A stretch of DNA of 64,000 bases, from positions 315,668-379,667 of the forward strand of contig CBDEUM010000038.1 of the NCBI GenBank assembly GCA_965242925.1, in the 5' to 3' direction. Source of the DNA: Roseibacillus sp. GTDB lineage: Bacteria > Verrucomicrobiota > Verrucomicrobiia > Verrucomicrobiales > Akkermansiaceae. Numbering within the stretch: position 1 is the stretch's first letter; every line of letters begins with the position of its first letter. This document shows positions 5,486 through 33,691 of the stretch, in pieces. Position numbers and translations under genes: made by a program. The notes beneath the pieces are model-generated. The model saw nothing but the letters and a program-made list of their open reading frames with translations. It did no database searches and was not told the DNA's origin.

Positions 5486-5502
5486 TTGAGACTCAGTCTC
5501 GA
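5486..5502. promoter_or_regulatory. 8-1-8 inverted repeat TTGAGACT-C-AGTCTCGA, candidate metalloregulator operator
   Basis: Near-perfect palindrome (1 mismatch) in the intergenic region upstream of a metal ABC operon; resembles Fur-family boxes of the TGAGAATnATTCTCA type. Confidence 0.55.
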
Positions 5503-6914: not shown

Positions 6915-7702
6915 CACCTGCAGACGGTCGCCCGGAACATCCGGACAACCTCCCCCTCGCGATTCACGACCTGACGGTGGCTTATCACCGCAAACCGGTC
7001 ATCTGGGATATCGAACTCAATATCCCGGAAGGGAAACTGGTGGGAGTGGTGGGTCCAAACGGAGCAGGGAAGAGCACCCTTCTCAAGGCGTGCCAGGATC
7101 TGGTTCCCAAGACCTCGGGGGAGGTGCAGATTTATGGAGCCCCTTACAAGTCGCGCCGCAGTCTTGTCGGCTACGTTCCCCAGCGGGAGAGCGTGGACTG
7201 GGATTTCCCGGTGAGTGCGTTGGATGTGGTGGCGATGGGGACCTATGGGAGACTCGGATGGTTTCGTCGTGTCGGAAAGGCCCAGAAGCGTGTTGCCATG
7301 GATGCCTTGGCGCGTGTGGGTATCGAGCATCTGGCAAGCCGACAGATCAGCCACCTTTCGGGTGGGCAGCAGCAACGGGTTTTTCTTGCGCGCGCTCTTG
7401 CGCAGGATGCCAGGATCTACTTCATGGACGAACCCTTTGCTGCCGTCGATGCTGCCACCGAGCAGGCAATCGTGACGTTGCTGAAAGAGTTGAACCAGGT
7501 GGGCAAGACCTGTCTTGTGGTGCATCACGATCTGTCCTCGGTGACTCGCTATTTCGATTGGCTTGTCCTGCTCAACATGCGGGTGGTGGCCTCGGGTCCC
7601 ACGGAGGAGGTGTTCACCCGCGAGAACCTTCAGAAAACCTATGGGGGCAAGCTCAGTTTGCTGGACGATGTCGCGGATCGTTTGCGCCATGTCAGCAGTT
7701 AA
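6887..7702 (+). CDS. troB: Metal ABC transporter ATP-binding protein
   Basis: GPNGAGKS, GYVPQR, LSGGQQQR and MDEPFAAVD motifs. Confidence 0.93.
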   Translation: MKSFVDNRHAPADGRPEHPDNLPLAIHDLTVAYHRKPVIWDIELNIPEGKLVGVVGPNGAGKSTLLKACQDLVPKTSGEVQIYGAPYKSRRSLVGYVPQRESVDWDFPVSALDVVAMGTYGRLGWFRRVGKAQKRVAMDALARVGIEHLASRQISHLSGGQQQRVFLARALAQDARIYFMDEPFAAVDAATEQAIVTLLKELNQVGKTCLVVHHDLSSVTRYFDWLVLLNMRVVASGPTEEVFTRENLQKTYGGKLSLLDDVADRLRHVSS

Positions 7703-9140
7703 GAGCGGGAGGGGATTGGTCCTGCTGATGGCTTTGGCGCTCCTTTTCCTGAGTGCCGGCTCGCTCGAGGCCCGGGAATCGGCATGGCAGGACTGGGACT
7801 ATGTCTGGAAGGTTATTACTTTGCAGTCGTACAATGCACGTCTTGTCATCCTTTCCACCTCGTTGCTTGGAATTGCCTCCGGACTGGTGGGGACCTTTCT
7901 GCTCCTCCGGAAGCGCTCCCTGATGGGGGATGCGCTCTCCCATGCCACCTACCCGGGCATCGGCATGGCCTTTCTGGTGATGTTGCTCCTGGGGGGAGAG
8001 GGGAAGTGGCTTCCAGGATTGCTTCTCGGGGCGGCCACTACCGGACTGCTCGGCGTTCTCATGGTGCTGGCCATCCGCAACACTACTCGCTTGAAGGATG
8101 ATGCTGCGATGGGGATCGTGATGGGTGTTTCCTTCGGCCTCGGGGTCGCGCTCATGAAAATGGTGAGCGATCTTCCCCAGGCTGACGCGGCCGGCCTCAG
8201 CAGTTTCATTTACGGGACGGCTGCCACCATGATCTTAGGTGACTTTCTTTTGATCCTTGTTGTGACCATAGGAGCGGCACTGGCGTCTCTCTTCCTGCTC
8301 AAGGAGTTCGCTATCCTTTGTTTTGATGAGAGCTTTGCGGCGAGTCAGGGTTGGCCTACTTTTTTCCTCGATCTGGCCATGCTCGGACTGGTGACCGCGG
8401 TTACGGTGGTGGGTCTCCAGGCAGTGGGCCTGGTGTTGATCATTGCATTCCTCATCATTCCCCCCACGGCAGCGCGTTTCTGGACGCATGATCTGCGAGG
8501 CATGCTCGGGCTGGCCGCCATGGTCGGCGGTGTGAGCGGTTGGATCGGTTCGAGTCTGAGTGCGCTTTTTGCGGATCTTCCTACCGGGGCGGTCATTGTC
8601 CTGGTTGCGGCCACGATTTTCCTTGTGAGCATGCTCTTCGGTCCGGCCCGGGGGGTGGTGCCCCGCTCATGGCGTCAGGCCCGGTTGCGGCGCAAGGTCG
8701 GGCGGCAACACCTCATGCGGGCGGCATACGAAATACTGGAGGGGCAGCAACCCGATGTAGCTGAGCCTATCCGCAATCTCCCCATTGCGCTCGATTCCCT
8801 CCTGACCCATCGGTCCTGGTCGGCACAGCAGATCAACCGTCTCCTGCGCACCGCTCGGACCGAAGATCATCTGGAGGAGGCGGAGCCAGGGCAGGTGCGG
8901 CTCTCTGAGGCTGGCTTCGGCGAAGCGGCCCGGGTCACCCGCAATCACCGCCTCTGGGAGCTTTACCTTATCCACTATGCTGACATTGCGCCCTCCCACG
9001 TTGATCGCGATGCCGATCTGGTGGAGCATGTCCTTGACGCCGAGGTCGTGAATCAACTCGAATCCGAGCTGCAGGACCGGCCCTCCAGCCTGGAAGTGCC
9101 GCCCAGTCCCCACTTCATTGATCAACGTGCAGAGTCGTAA
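7689..9140 (+). CDS. Metal ABC permease (ABC-3) fused to a C-terminal DtxR/MntR-like domain (YtgCR-like)
   Basis: LLRKRSLMGDALSHA and DAAMGIV permease motifs; C-terminal VRLSEAGFGEAARVTRNHRLWELYL...DADLVEHVL matches the DtxR metal-binding/dimerisation region. Start chosen at ATG 7689. Confidence 0.9.
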   Translation: MSAVKSGRGLVLLMALALLFLSAGSLEARESAWQDWDYVWKVITLQSYNARLVILSTSLLGIASGLVGTFLLLRKRSLMGDALSHATYPGIGMAFLVMLLLGGEGKWLPGLLLGAATTGLLGVLMVLAIRNTTRLKDDAAMGIVMGVSFGLGVALMKMVSDLPQADAAGLSSFIYGTAATMILGDFLLILVVTIGAALASLFLLKEFAILCFDESFAASQGWPTFFLDLAMLGLVTAVTVVGLQAVGLVLIIAFLIIPPTAARFWTHDLRGMLGLAAMVGGVSGWIGSSLSALFADLPTGAVIVLVAATIFLVSMLFGPARGVVPRSWRQARLRRKVGRQHLMRAAYEILEGQQPDVAEPIRNLPIALDSLLTHRSWSAQQINRLLRTARTEDHLEEAEPGQVRLSEAGFGEAARVTRNHRLWELYLIHYADIAPSHVDRDADLVEHVLDAEVVNQLESELQDRPSSLEVPPSPHFIDQRAES

Positions 9141-23010: not shown

Positions 23011-24018
23011 TTACTTGTGATCGGAAGGTTTTATTCCCTTCTTGAAGCCGTTGAAGCTGTAAAAGGTAGGCTTATAGTCCCCGATCGGAGTGACCTTGGC
23101 TTTGCCGTCAATGGTGTCCTCCATGCCGAGTCCCCAGAAGACTCCATTGACAACCATGCGGCGGAGACCCTCGCTCTTGAAATCGGTGGCGGCTCCCATC
23201 GTGGTACAGAAGAGCCGGTTGGTCTTGCCCTTGGGATTTTTCAGTTCGCGGGTCCAAGCCACTGCCATGGCTGGATCGTTAACATCCTCGACCTGTCCGG
23301 TGGCACGGTTTTTCTTCTTTTTGCCCTCCACCGGAGCGGAGTCCGGCTTAAGGGATTTGGTTACCACGCCCCGCATGAGAATGGTGGCGTCCTTGGGAGG
23401 ATATGCTTCGTAGGTGTCGCTGTCCGCAAAGACATCTGTAGCGCCCTTCAGGATGGGATGATCCTTGTTGGCGTCTTCCACCGCGCCACGACATCCTTCC
23501 CGCTTGTGGTGTCCCCAGTGGCTCACCCAGCCCTCGCCGAGCACCTTTTTGCCGAAGCTGTTGAAGTCCCGGTAGGCGCCCTGACGGAGTTGAAAGGCGT
23601 GCGTGCTGGTGCGGAGGCCGATGATGGGGACGCCCCGGTGATAGGCATCCACAAAGTGCTTCATGTCCTCGTCGGGCCAGTTGCGGAACCGAAGGGCTAT
23701 GATGATGAGGTCAGCCGAGTCCATGGCCTCGGAGTTGGTGACACTCTTCTGGTTGTTGGGATCGATCTCGCCCTTGTCATTCACCGAGAAGAGAACGGTG
23801 CAGTCGAATCCGTGGTGATCGGAGAGGATGCGCCCAAGCATGGGCAGACATTCCTCGGAGCGATATTCTTCGTCACCACTGACAAGAACGATGTGCTTGC
23901 CCTTACCCGGGCCGTCCTTGCCCTCGTAGTGGACCGAGAGATGATGATCGGCCTGAACTGAGGTGAGGCTGAGTGCCAGGCCGGCGCCAGCTGATACGAT
24001 GCGATGGAGTCGATTCAT
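23011..24018 (-). CDS. Secreted ThuA-like (class I glutamine amidotransferase-like fold) protein
   Basis: Signal peptide from ATG 24018; HIVLVSGDEEYRSEE, PIIGLRTSTHAF, HPILKG and RLFCTTMGA motifs. Confidence 0.8.
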   Translation of the reverse strand: MNRLHRIVSAGAGLALSLTSVQADHHLSVHYEGKDGPGKGKHIVLVSGDEEYRSEECLPMLGRILSDHHGFDCTVLFSVNDKGEIDPNNQKSVTNSEAMDSADLIIIALRFRNWPDEDMKHFVDAYHRGVPIIGLRTSTHAFQLRQGAYRDFNSFGKKVLGEGWVSHWGHHKREGCRGAVEDANKDHPILKGATDVFADSDTYEAYPPKDATILMRGVVTKSLKPDSAPVEGKKKKNRATGQVEDVNDPAMAVAWTRELKNPKGKTNRLFCTTMGAATDFKSEGLRRMVVNGVFWGLGMEDTIDGKAKVTPIGDYKPTFYSFNGFKKGIKPSDHK

Positions 24019-24160: not shown

Positions 24161-25087
24161 TTAATTGGAGAGGGCCCGGAGGGCGGCGACATTAGCCCTC
24201 ATCACGCTGAGGAAGTCTCCGTTTTCGGGTTGGTTACCGCAGGGGGAGATGACCACGCTGGTGAGGCCGATTTCTTTCAGTTTCTCGATGTTCCGGGGGA
24301 GAGGATCACCCTCCCAGATGAAGAGCGTGGCCCCGGGGTTCTCTTCCCGGATTCTGGACAGGGCTGCCATGTCTTCGGGGGTGAGTTCCATGTTGGGTTC
24401 CCATAAGAGTGAGGGTGCGACGATGTGGTAGGCGCGGGCCCAGTATTGATAGACCGGGTGAGAAACAATGACGGGAGCATTTCCGAGTCCGGATGTGGCG
24501 GCAGTCATCCCGGTGTCGAGGTTGTTGAGATCTTCCAGAAGGGCGTCCAGCCTGGTCATGACAGTCCCCCTGTGTTCGGGAAATCGCTCGCCGAGTGCGA
24601 GGGCTGTTTCGGATGCCTGGGCCGAAGCCTGCTTGAGATCCAGCCAGGTGGTGAACGCGAGACCGTCGTGAGAGTGAGCGTCCTCGCCCTTCTTGTGGCT
24701 GTGCTTGAGAGTGCCCTCGGTCTTGATGAGCCTGTCCCGGAAGGAACTGGAGGTCGTCACCGTGGTCTCGTAGGGGAGGGTGCGGGAGGAGGTCCACTTG
24801 GCGTAGGTTGCCCCATTCAGCAGGATGAGATCGGCCTTCTGGATGGCGGTGATCTGCTCGTCATGGGGTTCCCAGAAGGCGGGATCCTGGTTGGTCGGCA
24901 CGTCGTAGAGAACAGTGGCAAAATCGCTGGAAAGGCGTTCAGCAAAATAGGCCAGAGGATAGTTGACGGCGGCGATGACGGGCTTGTGGCTTTCGCCGTC
25001 ATGGGGCTGGGCCTGCTTTTCTTGCTCTCCGCAGGAAACGAGATGAAGAGCGAGGATCAGAGGGGAGCCGGGGAGAGCGTGTTTCAT
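24161..25087 (-). CDS. ZnuA/TroA-fold substrate-binding lipoprotein with non-canonical ligand set and His-rich loop
   Basis: Lipobox LVSC; VNYPLAYFAERL and ADLILLNGA; DPAFWEP and AFTTWLD replace DPHxYEP and DPHxWLD; loop KHSHKKGEDAHSHDG; SHPVYQY retained. Confidence 0.85.
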   Translation of the reverse strand: MKHALPGSPLILALHLVSCGEQEKQAQPHDGESHKPVIAAVNYPLAYFAERLSSDFATVLYDVPTNQDPAFWEPHDEQITAIQKADLILLNGATYAKWTSSRTLPYETTVTTSSSFRDRLIKTEGTLKHSHKKGEDAHSHDGLAFTTWLDLKQASAQASETALALGERFPEHRGTVMTRLDALLEDLNNLDTGMTAATSGLGNAPVIVSHPVYQYWARAYHIVAPSLLWEPNMELTPEDMAALSRIREENPGATLFIWEGDPLPRNIEKLKEIGLTSVVISPCGNQPENGDFLSVMRANVAALRALSN

Positions 25088-25103
25088 GCAAGAGAAGCAG
25101 TTC

Positions 25104-26289
25104 TTAGTTGAGAAACCTGGAGAGAAGATCGCTAGCGAGGGAGCGGGTGAGGGAGACGGCAATCCGTGCCAGAATCATTGCCGAGATCACGACAATGGTG
25201 ACCTCGACGGCCTTAAGGGTGCCGATCAGGATCCTGCTGGCACCGATCTTGGTGTAGGTGAGCATTTCGCGTTCACGAAGACGAAAGGAGAGCAGGAATA
25301 CGAGGGCGGCCAGTCCCAGGGCGGCCACGCCCAGAAGTCGGAAAGCTGCTAGAGCAAGACGTTGGGTGGCGAAGAGGGTGTCAGCGAGGTCTGTGACGGC
25401 AGAGAGGGGAACCACCATCTGGGCCGGTGGCGTCCCTGTCCTGATAAGCCGCCAGGGCGAGGGCGCGTTGCTTCTGGTCCCCGGGGACGAGGATGGCAGA
25501 AGAAAGGGGATAGGTGCCAGGATCACCGTGAAAGTGAAAGCTTGTGATATTCCCGTCGGTGACCTCGTTAAATTCGATCACCGAGGCATTGGCGCGAACC
25601 ACGTTCTCGCCGGATTCCCCGGGCGATCCGGAGGCCCCCGGGTCGGTCAGGTCCTGGTGACCATGTGCGAGGCCTTCGATAATCCAGGTGGTCTTGAAAT
25701 CGACGAAGACGGCGTCGTCATCAGCCGTGTGATTGGGGGCAAGCACACCGGTGATGCGCATGCGCAACGGGTAGACACCGGCAAGATCAAAGACATTCTC
25801 CGGCGAGGACGTGATAGTGTCGCCTGCCTTGAGATTCTCGCGGGCGGCAAGTCGGGATCCAATAACGCAGTCGCCAAGGCGGGTGATCATCCGTCCGGAG
25901 GACACCATGAGTTTGCGCAATTCGAAGTAGGCGAGAGAAGTCCCTATGACGGGGGCGTTCTCTGCCTCGAATCGGGCGTGCATCGGGATGGTGGTCCCGA
26001 AACGTTGCCGGGAAAGTTCTTCATAGGTGGCAAAGGTGAGTGGGGGAAGTTGCTGCGGGGTGAAATAGAGCGAGTTCAGGGTGAGGTCGATCGAGCTGCC
26101 TTTCGGACCGAGGAGGAGGGGGGTGGAGCGGGCCCGCTCCCGGAGGACATCCTCACTTTCACTGATGAAGACCTGCAGGGCGCGCGGAAAGAAGAAGGTG
26201 AGCGCGATGGCGGTGACCAGCGTGAGCGATCGCATCGGGCGATGGCTGAGGTGTTTCCAGCTGAGGAATGCGATGCCGCCGGGATTCAT
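25104..26289 (-). pseudogene. FtsX/MacB-type ABC permease split by a frameshift near 25420-25440 (pseudogene or assembly indel)
   Basis: ORF 25381-26289 gives TM1 and the periplasmic domain. The C-terminal TMs (QMVVPLSAV...RLREREMLTYTKIGAS) continue in another frame to the stop at 25104. Confidence 0.8.
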
Positions 26290-26960
26290 GGGGTGGCGGT
26301 TTCCCGGAACTGGTTGAGTTCTTCAAACTGCACGACTGCGTCGAAGGCATCCAGCAGTTCGACATCGTGGGTGGCGACCACAAGACACTGTCCCCGCTCG
26401 CGGGCGGTGTTGATCATGACATCCAGCACCCTGCGCTTGTTGCGAGGGTCAAGATTACCGGTAGGTTCATCGGCCAGAACAAGGCTGGGCTTCGTGCTCA
26501 GGGCACGACAGATGGCGACCCGCTGTCTCTCGCCGTGGGAGAGGTTGCGGGGGTGCATTCTCCAGTAGCCTGCGATTCCGGTATGTTCGGCGAGTCGTTT
26601 CGCCTCCGCTTCGATGGCGGGCCGTTGCGATCTCAGGCCGAGATGTATGGGGAGAAGGATGTTTTCTCCTACCGCGAGATGCTCGACGAGTTCAAACTCC
26701 TGGAAGATGAGCCCTATTCTCGCCAGCCTGAAGGTTGCACCCATGGCGTCTCCCAGGGAACTGACCTCAACGCCGTCCACGCGGACAACTCCCCTGGACG
26801 GGTGAAGAATCCCGGCGGCCAGATTGAGGAAGGTGGTCTTTCCGCAACCACTGGGCCCGACGATCGCGGTTGCCTGTGCCGCCTGGCAGGCGAAGTGGTC
26901 GATCCGCAGGCGATAGTCGCTTTGCGGATATTGAAATTCGATCTCTTCGACTTGGAGCAC
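26286..26960 (-). CDS. ABC transporter ATP-binding protein, LolD/MacB-like
   Basis: GPSGCGKT, IGLIFQEFEL, LSHGERQRVAICRAL and LADEPTGNLD motifs. Confidence 0.92.
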   Translation of the reverse strand: MLQVEEIEFQYPQSDYRLRIDHFACQAAQATAIVGPSGCGKTTFLNLAAGILHPSRGVVRVDGVEVSSLGDAMGATFRLARIGLIFQEFELVEHLAVGENILLPIHLGLRSQRPAIEAEAKRLAEHTGIAGYWRMHPRNLSHGERQRVAICRALSTKPSLVLADEPTGNLDPRNKRRVLDVMINTARERGQCLVVATHDVELLDAFDAVVQFEELNQFRETATP

Positions 26961-26963
26961 GGA

Positions 26964-28235
26964 TCAATCGGGGGTGGATGTTGAAGCGGACGCCGATGCC
27001 GGTTCGCGTTGGCGCTCGTGCAGACGGAGCTGTGTGATCTTCCAGGTGTTCTCCAGGGGTTCAACTACGAAGGTGGCACGGTAAAGGTTGGTGCGATCGT
27101 GGAAGTGCCCCCAGTGCCCCACCCGGCCACGGACCTCCCAGTTGCAGGTGGCAGTGAAGCCCGGTCGGTCGGGCAGGGGCGAGGGCTGTGAGTCTTCTAT
27201 GCGCAGATCATTCACGCGAACTCGGGAGCCGTCCCGGGCGCGGCTCTCAAGGGTACGCTGCACTTCGAGAAATATCGGGGTGAGGGCCGCTCCTCCCACC
27301 ACCTTGTTGAGGGCATCGTACTGTTCACTGCGTTTGCGATAGTGGAAGGAGTGGTAAACGCCGCGCAGGAGGGGATCGAGAATGCGGGACGACTGGGTCT
27401 CGTTGAGTTCGGTTCCGGAGCCCTTGCCGATCTCCACCTTGATGTGTGTGAGGCTTGTCGCGGTGATGGCAAGGAGGATGAGCAGGACTGCCAGAGCGGG
27501 GTTTTTCCGGTTGCTGCGCAGGAACCAGATGACCGGGGGAACAAGCCCCAGGCCAATCAGAACAGTGAGCCAGGGGAAACTGACGATGCTGGCGCCGAGG
27601 GTGGGCAGGAGAGGAGGGGGGAGAGGAGCGTTGCGACCGGCGGAGCGGTAGCGGCCGCGAATGTTCAAGGCAGGATTGAACTTGGTGAGATTGAAACTTC
27701 GTGTTCCAGCCGCATCGGCTACCTTGACAGTGACGAAGGGTGCGTTCTCGGGGATGAGGTTCCAGAAGACCTGAAGGGCCTGGCGGAGGTCCATGTTGGG
27801 GGCGGCGTAGACCACGCTAATCCGGATGTCCCGTGGAGAGACGGTTGCCTTTGGATCAATGAGGGAGAATTCGGTGGCCTTGGGTTCGATGAAGTGAATG
27901 CGGTCGAGAGTGAACTCGATCGGTTCATCCTGGATGGTGACGGGGCACTTCAGCGCCAGAAAGTTGCCGATCTTCGGTTTCAGGGCGGCTCGCTCCTCCG
28001 GGGAGAGTCTGGAATCTGCAGTGATTCCGAGATCGATCCACTGCTGCAGGGCGAGTGGACTTACGACGAACTCTTTCTCGATCTGCCAGGCATCAAGGTA
28101 GAGCGCTCCAGCCAGTTCGGCGGGAGGGGCAGGGGCCTCCTGCGCAGGCAGGCCCGAAGCGAACGAGATCGCGAAAGTCAGAGCGGCCCAGGGCTGAAGG
28201 GCAGGGATACTGATGCTGATTGTTTTTTGTGGCAT
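26964..28235 (-). CDS. Hypothetical envelope protein (signal peptide, two central TMs, C-terminal GHWGHFH motif)
   Basis: ATG 28235, signal-like N-terminus, TMs FPWLTVLIGLGLVPPVIWF and ALAVLLILLAITA, C-terminal WEVRGRVGHWGHFHDRTNLYRA; the stop abuts the ATPase start. Confidence 0.8.
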   Translation of the reverse strand: MPQKTISISIPALQPWAALTFAISFASGLPAQEAPAPPAELAGALYLDAWQIEKEFVVSPLALQQWIDLGITADSRLSPEERAALKPKIGNFLALKCPVTIQDEPIEFTLDRIHFIEPKATEFSLIDPKATVSPRDIRISVVYAAPNMDLRQALQVFWNLIPENAPFVTVKVADAAGTRSFNLTKFNPALNIRGRYRSAGRNAPLPPPLLPTLGASIVSFPWLTVLIGLGLVPPVIWFLRSNRKNPALAVLLILLAITATSLTHIKVEIGKGSGTELNETQSSRILDPLLRGVYHSFHYRKRSEQYDALNKVVGGAALTPIFLEVQRTLESRARDGSRVRVNDLRIEDSQPSPLPDRPGFTATCNWEVRGRVGHWGHFHDRTNLYRATFVVEPLENTWKITQLRLHERQREPASASASTSTPD

Positions 28236-28569
28236 GCGCGCGCGCGCAGGGCTTGATAGCGGGAGTCTACCGGGAGAGAGGAAGAGGAGCAAGGGTGTGG
28301 GAGCAGCGAGGGCGGCGGAGTTCCTGAAGTCTCTGGCCGGTGGTGCGGGGGCGAAATCAGCCCGCAGGGGATCCGGATGGCGGCCCGTGGACATTCGATC
28401 CAGGGGTGTTGGGAGTGGGGAAGTGTCGCCCGGGGACGACTTATTCCCATGCCTTCGGATCAAGTTGAAGGCCGGGAGCTCAGATTCATCCTCTAAAGGG
28501 ATTAATTCGGGACGGTTGGCTTGTAAGATCCCTTCGATACTGCCAAGCTTTATTGGCTCTAGAAAACCC

Positions 28570-31500
28570 ATGAGACACACGCACGGATTCCTTTCGTCGC
28601 TGGCGCTGACAGCCATTGCGATTTTCCCGGTCGGTTTCGTTCACGGTGCGGAAGGAGAGAACGAAGGCTCCGACCGTCCGGTCAGTTACTGGAACGACAT
28701 TCGACCGCTGATGCAGGCGAGTTGCCAAGGATGTCACCAGCCAGCCAAGGCCAAGGGTGATTATGTCCTCACCGATGTGAAGCGCCTTATTGAGGGGGGA
28801 GAAAGTGATGAGGCGGCAGTTCTTCCGGGAAAACCCGATGAGAGTCTTCTGATCGAGCAGATCACCCCTGATGATGATGGCAAGGCGGAGATGCCTCGCA
28901 GGGAGAAGGCTCTGCACGAAACCGAGATTGCTCTGCTCAGGCGGTGGATCGCCGAGGGCGCAGTGGATGATACGCCCGAGAATGCCTTCCAGAAATATGA
29001 CATGAATAATCCGCCGGTTTACGCGGTGCCACCGGTGGTGACTTCGATGGATTACTCTCCGGATGGTTCATTGCTCGCGGTGGCGGGTTTTCACGAGATC
29101 CTTATCCATAAGGCCGACGGGAGCGAGTTGGTGGCACGGTTGGTGGGGCTTTCCGAGCGCATAGAAAGTGTGGCCTTCTCGCCGGATGGCAGCATGGTGG
29201 CGGCAACCGGGGGGTTGCCAGGCCGGATGGGTGAGGTCCAGGTATGGAATGTAGCAAAGCAGACGCTCAAGGTCTCGGTGCCGGTGACCTACGACACGGT
29301 TTACGGGATCGCCTGGTCTCCGGACAGCAAGCTGGTTTCCTTCGGGTGCAGCGATAACACCCTTCGCGCGGTCAAGGTTTCGGACGGAAAACAGGTCCTT
29401 TTCATGGGGGGGCATAACGACTGGGTGCTCGATTCCGTCTTCTCCCGCGATGGCAAGCAGGTGATCAGCGTGGGGCGCGATATGACCGCCAAGCACACCG
29501 AGGTGGAAACTGAGAGACTCATCGATAACCTGACCTCTATTACACCTGGGGAGTTGAAGGGCGGGATAGCGGCGGTGGCGGGTCATCCATTGAAGGACGA
29601 GGTCCTGGTGGGTGGTTCCGATGGACAACCACAGGTCTTCCGCCTGAAGCGGCAGACTGCGCGCAAGATTGGGGACAACGCCAATGTGGTTCGCAAATTC
29701 CCACGTATGCCGGGGCGCATCTGGGACCTCTCCTTCAATAGAGACGGGAAACGGGCGGCGGGAGTCAGCAGCCTGAATGGGGGCGGAACGATCACCATCT
29801 ACAACTCCGAATACGACAGTAACATCCCTGGGGACATCAAGAATATCTTTAACAAGACACCTAACCCAGGAGAGAAGCAGAAACTGGAGGAATACTGGGC
29901 CCGCGAAGTGAACGTGCTTCATACCGTCGTTGTGCCGGAAACGGAGATGTTCTCGCTGGCGTTTTCTCCTGACGGCAAGATTCTTGCGGCAGCCGGGGCA
30001 GATGGAAAAGTACGCTTCATTGAAGTGGAGAACGGAAAGGTGAAGGGCGATTTTGTGCCCGTAAAGGTGGAAGGAGCCAAGGTCGTGGCCCAGCGTGAAA
30101 AAGGAGAGCAGAAGCCACTCAATCGGAAACGCGGAAAGCACGCAGAACTCAACGAGCGCAGGATCTCTGCGGACGAGATCATTTCCCTGTCCCTGGAACC
30201 CGGTGAGATCGTCTTCGACAAGTCCACCCAGTATGTGCAGCTCCTGGTGACGGCGGTTTTGAAACAGGGAGGGAAATCCGATGTGACTCGGCAGGTGTCG
30301 GTGGAGGGGGCGGGCGGACTCCTGGAAGTGACTCCGCGAGGGAGGGTTCAGCCCATCAGGGACGGGGAGGGAATGCTGTCCGTGAATTTAGGCAACCACA
30401 GGGCCGAGGTGAAGGTGATGGTTACGAATGTGAAGGAACACCGCATTCCCGACTATGTGCGGGATGTTAAGCCGGTGCTCAGCCGGATGGGTTGTGATGC
30501 GGGAACCTGTCATGGCTCCAAGGATGGGAAAAATGGATTTAAGCTTTCCCTCCGCGGCTACGATCCGCTCTTCGATGTGCGGGCCTTTAGCGATGATATT
30601 TCGGCCCGGCGTGTGAATTACGCCTCTCCCGACGATAGTCTCATGCTCCTGAAGGCAACCGGAGCGGTTCCCCACGAGGGGCAGCAGGTGACCCAACCGC
30701 ATTCGGAGTATTACCAGATTATCCGCGACTGGATCGCCAATGGCTCAAGCTTGGCCGACCCCAAGCCGGTAGTGAAGTCGATCGAGGTGTTTCCGAAGAA
30801 CCCCGTAATCCAGGAAGTGGGCGGGCAGCAGCAGATACGGGTGGTAGCAACCTATACGGATGGTTCGACGCGTGATGTGACGCGCGAATCGTTCGTGGAG
30901 GGTGCCAATCAGGACGTGGCGATCCATGACGATTATGGATTGATGACTACCCTGCGCCGGGGAGAAGCGCCTGTGCTGGCGCGCTACGAAGGTGCGTACG
31001 CGGCCACTACTCTGACAGTGATGGGAGATCGGAGCGGGTTCGAGTGGGTCGAGCAACCAGCCTGGGGAGAAATCGACAGACTGGTGGCCGCCAAGTGGCA
31101 GCGGATGAAGATCCTGCCGAGCGACCTTTGCAGCGATGAAGAGTTCATCCGAAGGGTTTATCTTGATTTAACCGGGTTGCCGCCCAAGTCGCTTCAACTG
31201 AAATTGTTCCTGGCGGATCCCACCGACTCGAAAACCAAGCGGGAGGAGGTTATCGATGATCTCATAGGTTCTCCTGAATTTGTGCAGCACTGGACAAACA
31301 AGTGGGCCGACATGCTCATGGTGAACAGTAAGTTCCTCGGAGGGGAGGGAGCAAAGATCTATCGGGAGTGGATCCGCAAGGAGGTGGAGACCAACACGCC
31401 TTATGACACTTTTGTGCGTAAGATACTCACCGCCAGTGGATCGAATAAGGAAAACCCGCCCGCGTCCTATTTCAAGATACATCGCGATCCGGACCTCCTG

Positions 31501-33691
31501 ATGGAGAATACCACGCACCTTTTCCTGGCGACCCGCTTCAACTGCAACAAGTGCCATGATCATCCCTTCGAGCGGTGGACCCAGAACCAGTACTATGAGA
31601 TCGCAGCCTACTTTTCCCGGGTGAAGCTGGAAAGGGACGGCAAAAATGCCCCCAAGCAGAACATTGGCGGAACCGCAGTAGAGGGAGCCAAGCCGCTCTA
31701 CGAGATCGCCAAGGATGCCGGAGAGGGGGAGATGAAGCACGAACGTACCGGCCAGGTAACCCCGCCGGCCTTTCCCTATCTGGTGAAGTATGAGAAGCCT
31801 CAGGCCACTCCCGAGAAGGGCCCCACCCGGCGCGAGGAGCTCGCAGCCTGGATTACGGCGAGTGGTAACCAGTTCTTCGGGCGGAGTTATGCCAACCGTA
31901 TCTGGGGGTATCTGATGGGAACGGGGGTGATCGAGCCGCTCGATGATATCCGTGCCGGCAACCCTCCTTCGAATCCTGAACTTCTAGACCATCTAACCAA
32001 CAAGTTCGTGGAAGGGGGCTTTGATGTACGCAAACTCATTGCCGAGATCTGCAAATCGCGGACCTATCAACTCTCCCTGACTACCAACAAATGGAATGAG
32101 GATGATCAGATCAACTTCTCTCATGCTCAGGCCCGTCGTCTTCCCGCGGAAGTGCTTTATGATGCGGTTCATGCGGTGACGGGTTCTGCGCCGAAGCTGC
32201 AGGCAAAGCAGATCGACGCCAAGCAGGACACCAAGAGTGGCCTGCTTGCTACGTTGGGCCGCCCCACCCGGGAGAGTGCCTGCGAGTGTGACCGCGCCAA
32301 TGATATGCAACTCAGCGGAGTGATGGCCCTTCTGAGCGGTCCCGACATTGCGGACGCCATTGCGGATCCCAAGAATGCGATTGCCAAGCTGGTGGATGAG
32401 CAGAAGGACGACGTGAAGCTGATCAAGGAAATCTACCTGCGGGTGCTCAATCGTGAACCGAGCTCTTCCGAGGTTCAGGTAGTGCAGGATAACTGGACCC
32501 TGATCCAACGGGATCACAAAGCGATGATGGACGATCTCTCCAGGCGTGAAAAGGAGTGGGAACCCGCTCGCAAGGAGCGGGAAGCCAAACGGCAGGCAGG
32601 GATAGACCAGGCCCAGAAGGATATCAGGGATTACCAAGCCCCAGCACGATGCCGAGCGCAAGCGTCTGGAGGGGGAGCGACAGAAAAAGATGAATGACTC
32701 CAAGAAGGCGATCGTTGATTACGAGGCGACCCTGCCGGTAAAGGTCGAGGAGTTCTCAGCCAAGGCCAAGATAGATGAAATTCCTACTAGGTGGCACCTC
32801 ATCAGGCCCGCTTCGGTGACCACTTCCGATAAGTCCAAGGTTGAGATCCTGTCGGACGGTTCCGTCAAGGGCAGTGGGGGTGAGCGAGCCTTCGACTACC
32901 TCGTCACGACGGAAACGAAGCTCACCAATATCACCGGTCTCATGATTGAGGCTGTGCCGGATCTTGCGTTTAACGGGGGACCGGGTCTGAGCAAGGATGG
33001 GAATATGGTGATCACGGAGTTGCAGGCCCGCTGGCAGAGCAAGGCGGAGGGAGCAAAGGGGATGGGAATCCCCTTTGCTGATGCCAAGGCCAGCTTCACT
33101 CAGAAGGAGTTTGATGTGAAGCGCACCTTTGACGGCAATCTCGATGGCGGAAACCGGGGATGGGCGCTCGGCGCCACAAATTACAAAGTGCCCCACCGGG
33201 CCGTCTATAAGCTGAAGGAACTCGTGAAGGGCGATTCAGAGAACGGCGCCACCCTCACGGTGGGCGTGCTCTGCCGTTTCAAGAGTCATCCGATAGGGCG
33301 TTTCCGTGTTTATATCACTACCGACGCTGATCCCCTGCACTTTGGAATCCCTGCCCACATCGCGGATGCATTCGGTAAAGAGGCGGAGCAGCGCAGCGAG
33401 GAGGAGAGAAAAGGTCTTGCGGCCTGGGTCGGAGAGAGCGACGTCGAATACCAGAATCGTCGCTGGGCGGCCAAAGGGCCCATTCCACCTGTCCCACCGG
33501 ACAAGAAGATCGAAGAGCTCAAGAAGGCCCTCAAGTATGCGGAAACGCCTATTGAGGAGGATCCCCGGCTCATCAGGTTCCGCAAAGACGTGGAAATGAG
33601 TGCCAGGCAGTCCAAGAATCCCCGGCTCACCGCTGCCCAGGATTTAACTTGGGCATTGATTAACACCCCCTCTTTCCTGTTTAATCACTGA
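28570..33691 (+). pseudogene. Large exported cytochrome c / WD40 / Ig-like / DUF1549 / DUF1553 protein, frameshifted near 32640 (pseudogene or assembly indel)
   Basis: Signal peptide at ATG 28570; SCQGCH, WD40 repeats, CDAGTCH, FIRRVYLDLTGLPP, FNCNKCHDHPF, NPPSNPELLD and RESACEC. The family-typical end QDLTWALINTPSFLFNH is in the next frame (32690-33691). Confidence 0.85.

Follow-up and report, generated by a model that had tools for sequence, protein, structure and literature searches.

A Zrg-related operon with three conserved histidine sites in Roseibacillus and its possible role in periplasmic metal handling

A 64,000-nucleotide stretch of a Roseibacillus sp. genome (GCA_965242925.1, contig CBDEUM010000038.1, positions 315,668 to 379,667; the whole stretch is called the window here) carries on its minus strand a tightly packed operon of four genes in the order A-ATPase-permease-D. 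Protein A (26964..28235, 423 residues) is followed by an ATP-binding cassette (ABC) ATPase of the FtsE/LolD type (26286..26960, 224 residues), a MacB-type permease (25104..26289, ~394 residues in nature), and lipoprotein D (24161..25087, 308 residues), which has the lipobox LVSC. A first-pass annotation of this DNA had described the four-gene layout, and both the layout and all the motifs it quoted are present in the sequence. It had also proposed a periplasmic metal relay or metallation system, a reading that synteny, co-occurrence, and histidine conservation all uphold, with the function itself suggested by sequence comparison. The operon represents a separate variant of Zrg, nearer to it than the annotation held, because protein A carries the ZrgA/PA4063/Ang-1 fold and the permease is a three-helix sister of ZrgB/PA4065. 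The module is real, widespread, and apparently undescribed: no account of it was found in the literature searched, which mostly excluded subscription journals and excluded supplements (among them the ZrgA neighborhood figure S3 of PMC7731109), and the operon matches no already characterized transporter in that literature.

The ATPase matches PF00005, with FtsE (E 2.5e-49) and LolD (E 4.3e-46) as its top NCBIfam models, both under the cut-off. The permease matches MacB_PCD (PF12704) with 32 bits against a cut-off of 27, and a model of an 89% identical copy (L002; predicted local distance difference test, pLDDT, 85.7) places helices at residues 18–55, 294–337, and 352–393, with a large MacB-type periplasmic domain between helices 1 and 2. 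Foldseek identified MacB (5lil, E 1.3e-11) as the best fold match of this model; searched against solved structures, the single permease sequence returned nothing and its profile only FtsX, at E 0.07. Model and hydropathy together indicate three membrane helices, versus the four per permease given for this type in PMC11481552 and PMC9820375. The chain stops 37–49 residues past G349 in all 40 rows, and the fourth helix is absent from all 16 family members displayed; sister permeases retain it. The periplasmic insertion contains two motifs kept in 40/40 rows (a 41st row was incomplete), HGH (H209, H211; 25657..25665, minus strand) and HFH (H252, H254; 25528..25536, minus strand). Within the membrane helices, the 40-row alignments contain no conserved His, Asp, Cys, or Met, E362 of the permease being the sole invariant.

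In the window, the permease frame is broken by an extra single base at 25424..25428 (minus strand). The first-pass annotation described the protein as an FtsX/MacB type, overlooking both this one-base frameshift and the loss of the fourth helix. The break is an assembly error, and the natural gene is intact. Four related genomes aligned at this site have one base fewer than the window, and the contigs of all six covering runs lack the extra base (4/4 DNA-type runs and 2/2 RNA runs spanning the site). The runs contain two alleles, each one base shorter, at 25424 or at 25428; therefore, the window most likely merged alleles. A pseudogene was considered and rejected, as the extra base is missing from related genomes and from DNA and RNA runs alike. 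The RNA-run contigs span parts of the operon and, being contigs, give no expression, level, or single-transcript information.

Protein A has no Pfam or NCBIfam match, and a sequence search against solved structures gave nothing (best E 0.12). Its AlphaFold2 model (pLDDT 88.7) consists of a predicted signal peptide, a domain of the ZrgA/PA4063/Ang-1 fold (res. ~37–198), a membrane hairpin of two helices (res. 222–264), and an NTF2/VirB8-like domain (res. 275–411). By Foldseek and re-comparison of the Foldseek hits, the best fold match of the first domain is Ang-1 (9gce; Z 10.0, root-mean-square deviation (RMSD) 3.1, 142 residues aligned), accompanied by ZrgA (8f1b; Z 9.7, RMSD 4.2, 129 aligned) and PA4063 (Z 9.0, RMSD 4.7, 130 aligned), and the last domain matches ARC6/PARC6, IcmL, VirB8, and NTF2 (best 5had; Z 11.8, RMSD 3.3, 127 aligned), all at 7–13% identity only, so that no function is implied. 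The HWGHxH triad of A (H374, H377, H379; 27099..27116, minus strand) sits at the predicted tip of a β-hairpin in the NTF2-like domain, between model strands 360–374 and 377–394. Among 148 aligned homologs, H374 is kept in 147, H377 in 145, and H379 in 146. The protein had been thought to end in this motif (GRVGHWGHFH), which is wrong, since 44 more residues follow it.

The family of A numbers 1,629 clusters at 50% identity and varies in architecture. Domain 1 is His-poor (mean 1.4 His) and is present in tandem duplicate (hhalign 96.9%) in the common form of 580–620 residues. Four of five long homologs tested are fused to HupE/UreJ-2, and some are fused behind an Ang-like domain plus HupE/UreJ-2; the window protein has no HupE domain and no N-terminal His after signal cleavage. 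In Paracoccus (L027:9097-13883), A is reduced to a 166-residue NTF2-like domain, and the module is located behind a type II secretion cluster, with two DUF4198 genes flanking it. A complex of the permease and A predicted from the L002 copies with the 40-row alignments scored 0.01, a value that weighs neither for nor against binding.

Lipoprotein D matches PF01297 with 119 bits against a cut-off of 29 (E 2.6e-34). Its metal cleft was read from an alignment of 32 rows, from which most Roseibacillus duplicates and short frames had been removed beforehand. Ala70 occupies the His1 position (30/32), Thr146 the His2 position (30/32), and H210 the His3 position (30/32); the His2 assignment is confirmed because the other two copies still have His there. 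The acidic ligand D284 of TroA aligns to P282/C283 of D, and this ligand position is lost. The first-pass annotation had contrasted D with the DPHLY and DPHVW motifs of TroA, both of which are indeed found in the TroA of this window, and had correctly noted that the first two canonical His are gone; it had reported neither the retention of H210 nor the loss of the C-terminal acidic ligand. D also contains a four-His loop (H129, H131, H138, H140; 24668..24703, minus strand), in which H129, H131, and H140 are kept in 32/32 rows, H138 in 31/32, and the arrangement is a fixed HxH-x(5-6)-HxH. Conservation of the His motifs in A, the permease, and D is far beyond chance. Some copies of D have no lipoprotein Cys.

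The defining features of cluster A-I proteins are conserved ligands and a Trp (PMC7731109). Like those that serve ABC-3 permeases (ZnuABC, TroABCD, AdcABC, AztABCD), D has the PF01297 fold, the Trp (W148, 32/32), the third His, and a His loop. Unlike them, it lacks two of the three His and the acidic ligand, its His loop is fixed, and its partner is of the MacB type: D adjoins the MacB-type permease, not an ABC-3 permease, and is found only in genomes with that permease. These alignments place D outside the canonical cluster A-I proteins.

The module is conserved as a unit. Among 20 genome loci with A, 17 keep the full A-ATPase-permease-D order, two are cut off by the contig end behind the ATPase, and one has only A. 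Across 251 family genomes, which share one collection with the 20 loci and are not independent of them, the 25 that contain the permease family (E ≤ 2e-108) are also the 25 that contain A including its C-terminal domain. D is present in 23 of these 25 and in no other genome of the 251; one of the two module genomes without D breaks off inside the permease gene. In genome G346, A lies on a separate contig, and a DUF4198 gene heads an ATPase-permease-D operon. The module is near-core in a marine Verrucomicrobia genus (17/19 genomes) and spreads over several bacterial phyla, with the cassette on plasmids of Methylomagnum (Gammaproteobacteria) and Paracoccus (Alphaproteobacteria) and further copies in Cyanobacteria. 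Atlas clusters of A come mainly from Planctomycetota, Verrucomicrobiota, and Pseudomonadota. At 80 metagenome loci, A is accompanied by the ATPase or permease in 49 and has neither nearby in 15; 16 loci are too short.

The closest relatives are ZrgABCDE of Vibrio and PA4063-PA4066 of Pseudomonas aeruginosa, which likewise combine a separate ATPase and a MacB-type permease with periplasmic partners. The resemblance to Zrg had been recognized from the first and was correct, although "loosely", as it was then put, is too weak, with domain 1 of A adopting the ZrgA/PA4063 fold and the permease belonging to a sister clade. In a quick tree of 30 rows rooted on two long outgroups, the 16 family permeases form one clade (Shimodaira–Hasegawa-like approximate likelihood ratio test, SH-aLRT, 99) beside 12 Zrg-like permeases (97), among which is the permease of a P. 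aeruginosa DUF2796-ATPase-permease-DUF3299 operon. A profile of the permease family scores 78–112 bits on Zrg, phosphatase-linked, and DUF3299-linked sisters versus 8–15 on two generic permeases. ZrgB is predicted to have four helices and to be MacB-like (PMC9820375). The module permease differs in its three helices, its fixed four-His site, and its own clade outside ZrgB/PA4065. The ZrgA-fold domain of the module is, unlike its counterparts, His-poor, membrane-anchored, often duplicated, and fused to an NTF2-like HWGHxH domain, and a ZnuA-fold lipoprotein stands at the DUF3299 position. Protein A has no Pfam match to DUF2796, the ZrgA family, and shares only the fold; DUF3299 (ZrgE/PA4066) is absent from the window operon and from the 96 neighbor proteins scanned (of ~206 candidates). 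The operon probably works in a Zrg-like way and is not a Zrg member, because it has no DUF2796, no DUF3299, and a permease in a separate three-helix clade.

Two further families bear on the module. With type VII ABC systems (MacB, LolCDE, FtsEX, YbbAP, HrtBA) it shares the ATPase type, the periplasmic core domain, and the fold, and differs in the missing fourth helix and in having no recurring MacA/TolC or LolA partner; neither MacA/HlyD nor TolC recurs among the neighbor clusters, and among the 96 neighbors scanned the one weak HlyD match is at a permease-less locus. With the Anglerase Ang-1, known with HupE/UreJ-2 and DUF4198 (PMC12537917), it shares the fold of A domain 1, the HupE/UreJ-2 fusions, and DUF4198 in the operon. 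In contrast to Ang-1, protein A of the window lacks the N-terminal His brace and carries its conserved His in the NTF2-like domain, and the system is ATPase-coupled.

Neighboring genes encode candidate clients. A signal-bearing hydrolase of the metallo-β-lactamase fold (PNGM-1/GntH-like) is found in 23 of the 80 metagenome loci, or 18 of the 35 with at least 1.5 kilobases upstream, and lies at most 400 base pairs from A or D in 13 of the 23. Four of five such hydrolases tested score above the cut-off of NF041257, and one that was searched lies near PNGM-1 (E 2.7e-119), a di-zinc enzyme (PMC7404133). The other neighbors, each beside one or a few copies of the module, are β- and δ-carbonic anhydrase, an M48 peptidase, PCuAC, DUF4198, and an arginase-family protein with a PpiC foldase. 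PpiC-type foldases occur in two operons, two lineages have DUF4198 in the operon, the Methylomagnum copy adjoins genes for NikR and a TonB receptor, and CopC or PCuAC is near two copies. Among sister permeases, the operon is shared with an alkaline phosphatase in three of four regions read; in these three (L108, Shinella; L109, Deinococcus radiodurans MP1; L111, Azospirillum), a single operon encodes the alkaline phosphatase, a small CxxC protein, the ATPase, and a Zrg-like permease of four helices, a sister system that lends itself to laboratory work.

Substrates of the twin-arginine translocation (Tat) pathway are exported folded and usually metallated in the cytoplasm, and Sec substrates outside it. 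A search based on the hydrolase retrieved nine plasmid records (six read) and two of the 251 genomes. Three hydrolase-bearing regions combine a non-Tat enzyme with A or a Zrg-type operon. In five others (L126, L128, L135-L137), hydrolases of a Tat-type clade are directly followed by a CobW/COG0523 GTPase (5/5); the twin-arginine is clear in three of these enzymes, degenerate in one, and unreadable in one, and the L126 pair is preceded by PpiC, HupE/UreJ, and DUF3604. Of the 24 hydrolase frames at A loci whose N-terminus could be read, 23 lack the twin-arginine motif. The closest non-Tat relative of the Tat-type hydrolases is encoded in one operon together with DUF3299 and a permease of the Zrg type. 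This contrast, Tat with CobW versus non-Tat with the module, fits metal supply on the side of the membrane where the enzyme folds.

We propose, with a probability of about 0.5, that the product of the operon is an ABC machine related to Zrg and resembling MacB, which supplies exported metalloenzymes with a divalent metal (most likely zinc) while keeping that metal on the periplasmic side of the membrane. We infer every step of the following cycle from sequences and predicted models. D would take up the metal through its four-His loop, not through the degenerate canonical cleft, and the loaded lipoprotein would dock at the periplasmic HGH/HFH site of the permease. When the cytoplasmic ATPase binds ATP, the membrane helices would pass the motion on by mechanotransmission and power the transfer. 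Membrane-anchored A may then accept the metal on its HWGHxH hairpin and deliver it to newly exported apo-enzymes, with the His-poor ZrgA-fold domain or domains serving as a docking surface and the membrane hairpin possibly substituting for the fourth helix absent from the permease. A hand-off without a membrane path is suggested because the membrane helices have no conserved metal ligands, and import would be less needed because the same genome has canonical importers, namely a TroA-ABC-3 operon in the window and a second ZnuA. Zinc is favored by the candidate clients; nickel or cobalt would be favored by the links to DUF4198, NikR, and HupE/UreJ (PMC12537917).

Several observations weigh against this proposal. 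For the closest studied systems, the published interpretations are acquisition of zinc (PMC9820375) or export of pyochelin-cobalt (PMC11481552), and for zinc in particular the DUF4198, NikR, and HupE/UreJ neighbors and fusions are of the nickel type. The metagenome loci behind the hydrolase counts were chosen by A, are often short, and show redundancy, collapsing at 90% to 63 clusters of which 20 have the hydrolase, and 15 of the 80 have A without a nearby ATPase and permease. A single genus contributes 18 of the 25 co-occurring genomes. Several hydrolase N-termini are shortened by start choice, and the CobW-linked hydrolases form one clade, so the contrast with the module rests on one evolutionary event. 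The hydrolase is absent from the window genome and all 19 genomes of the same genus, and no client is therefore identified in the window genome; with 2/251 family genomes carrying it, we rejected the hydrolase as a universal client. A possible client candidate is a secreted-looking ThuA-like protein (window 23011-24018) with an N-terminal HH and an SHWGHH motif, encoded close downstream of the operon in most Roseibacillus loci; no solved structural relative of it was found.

Metal might instead enter the cytoplasm through a non-canonical, Zrg-like importer or uptake aid, in which D and A gather zinc (or nickel or cobalt) and either the permease together with the A hairpin or a HupE/UreJ domain admits it. 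ZrgA is required for growth at low zinc when ZnuA is missing, Zrg mutants of a znuA strain growing poorly when zinc is limiting (PMC9820375), and low zinc induces the zrg genes 76- to 206-fold (PMC9817125). The solute-binding fold of D, the NikR and TonB receptor genes beside the Methylomagnum copy, and the HupE/UreJ-2 fusions, HupE/UreJ-2 being a proposed permease (PMC12537917), point the same way. We nevertheless find import doubtful: the membrane helices have no conserved metal ligands, the role described for MacB-type membrane domains is to transmit motion (PMC11481552), the operon showed no Zur-like box, canonical importers are already encoded in the genome, and the recurring neighbors are exported enzymes, not cytoplasmic ones. 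The opposite direction, in which the machine clears the periplasm of metal that is in excess or of the wrong kind (cobalt, nickel, copper), or of a metal-chelate, follows the interpretation of PA4064-PA4065 as a pyochelin-cobalt exporter, PA4065 mutants accumulating cobalt and pyochelin (PMC11481552). MacB as the top fold match of the permease and the CopC or PCuAC genes near two copies agree with it, but no MacA/HlyD or TolC family and no siderophore or resistance genes recur among the neighbors, and near-universal retention in the marine genus suits a housekeeping role; we regard export as the least probable of the alternatives.

It is also conceivable, though unlikely, that metal bound by the His residues bridges the subunits of a metal-gated chaperone or activator, in a structural or regulatory role; an exported protein would then be released or activated at the expense of ATP, in the manner of FtsEX/LolCDE, with no net metal transfer. 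This would account for FtsE and LolD as the top models of the ATPase, for an NTF2/VirB8/ARC6 fold frequent in protein-interaction domains, for the PpiC-type foldases in two operons, and for A lying directly behind a hydrolase gene even where ATPase and permease are missing. Three separate multi-His sites together with a ZnuA-fold partner, and CobW in the place of the module for Tat-type enzymes, suggest metal supply instead; the copies of D without the lipoprotein Cys also count against a chaperone.

Enzymes exported unfolded must acquire their metal in the periplasm. Loading after export is a poorly understood step, and to our knowledge energized zinc helpers in the periplasm are barely known. 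The proposed metal hand-off can be tentatively sharpened, with less assurance than the hand-off itself: the operon may encode a dedicated ATP-powered periplasmic metal insertase, the outside counterpart of the cytoplasmic COG0523 GTPases, in which the three-helix MacB derivative, completed by the A hairpin, strips zinc from the rebuilt ZnuA and loads Sec-exported enzymes. If that were true, the whole Zrg/PA4065 superclade would consist of enzyme-maturation machines, not transporters. The published readings of Zrg and PA4063-66 conflict, import versus export, and the fold is described as a motion-transmitting one. The module is easier to test than Zrg, offering three small fixed His sites, an adjacent candidate client, and a natural swap between a Tat-type enzyme with CobW and a non-Tat enzyme with the module or a Zrg-type one, and it gives a direct test of whether such machines metallate periplasmic enzymes. 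It is also an example of a MacB-type permease with three helices and of a ZnuA fold whose site has been rebuilt on a loop.

Regulatory sequences were sought upstream of the module. A search of 44 upstream regions for palindromes and for Zur-, Fur-, and NikR-like patterns gave none above shuffles. A palindrome, TAATGCAA-N5-TTGCATTA, lies upstream of the second znuA and in tandem copies before a His-rich protein, with sites in G000 at C22:154605; C35:8527 and 8549; C14:645522 and 645544; and C37:104643; the C14 and C35 sites resemble duplicated sequence. We consider it a candidate Verrucomicrobia Zur-like box, inferred from the palindrome itself, and its best match at the operon has six mismatches. 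A putative, weak sigma-70-like promoter read by eye, TTGCTC-N17-TAGACT, precedes A (28264..28292, minus strand); it is similar in L002-L004, yet unlisted by a consensus scan. AraC or TetR genes stand beside several module copies. Another palindrome, TTGAGACTCAGTCTCGA, lies at window ~5486-5502, ~290 bases before troA, with one further match at C22:59773, and the ABC-3 permease of the tro operon (window 7563-9140) is fused to a DtxR-type metal-binding domain, PF02742. A further Verrucomicrobia type of Zrg-like operon (L119-L121) has a divergent DUF3299 gene and, in L121, is divergent from a FeoB-like gene. A large divergent gene at window 28613-33691 is split into two frames that overlap at 32690-32697, possibly a second assembly frameshift.

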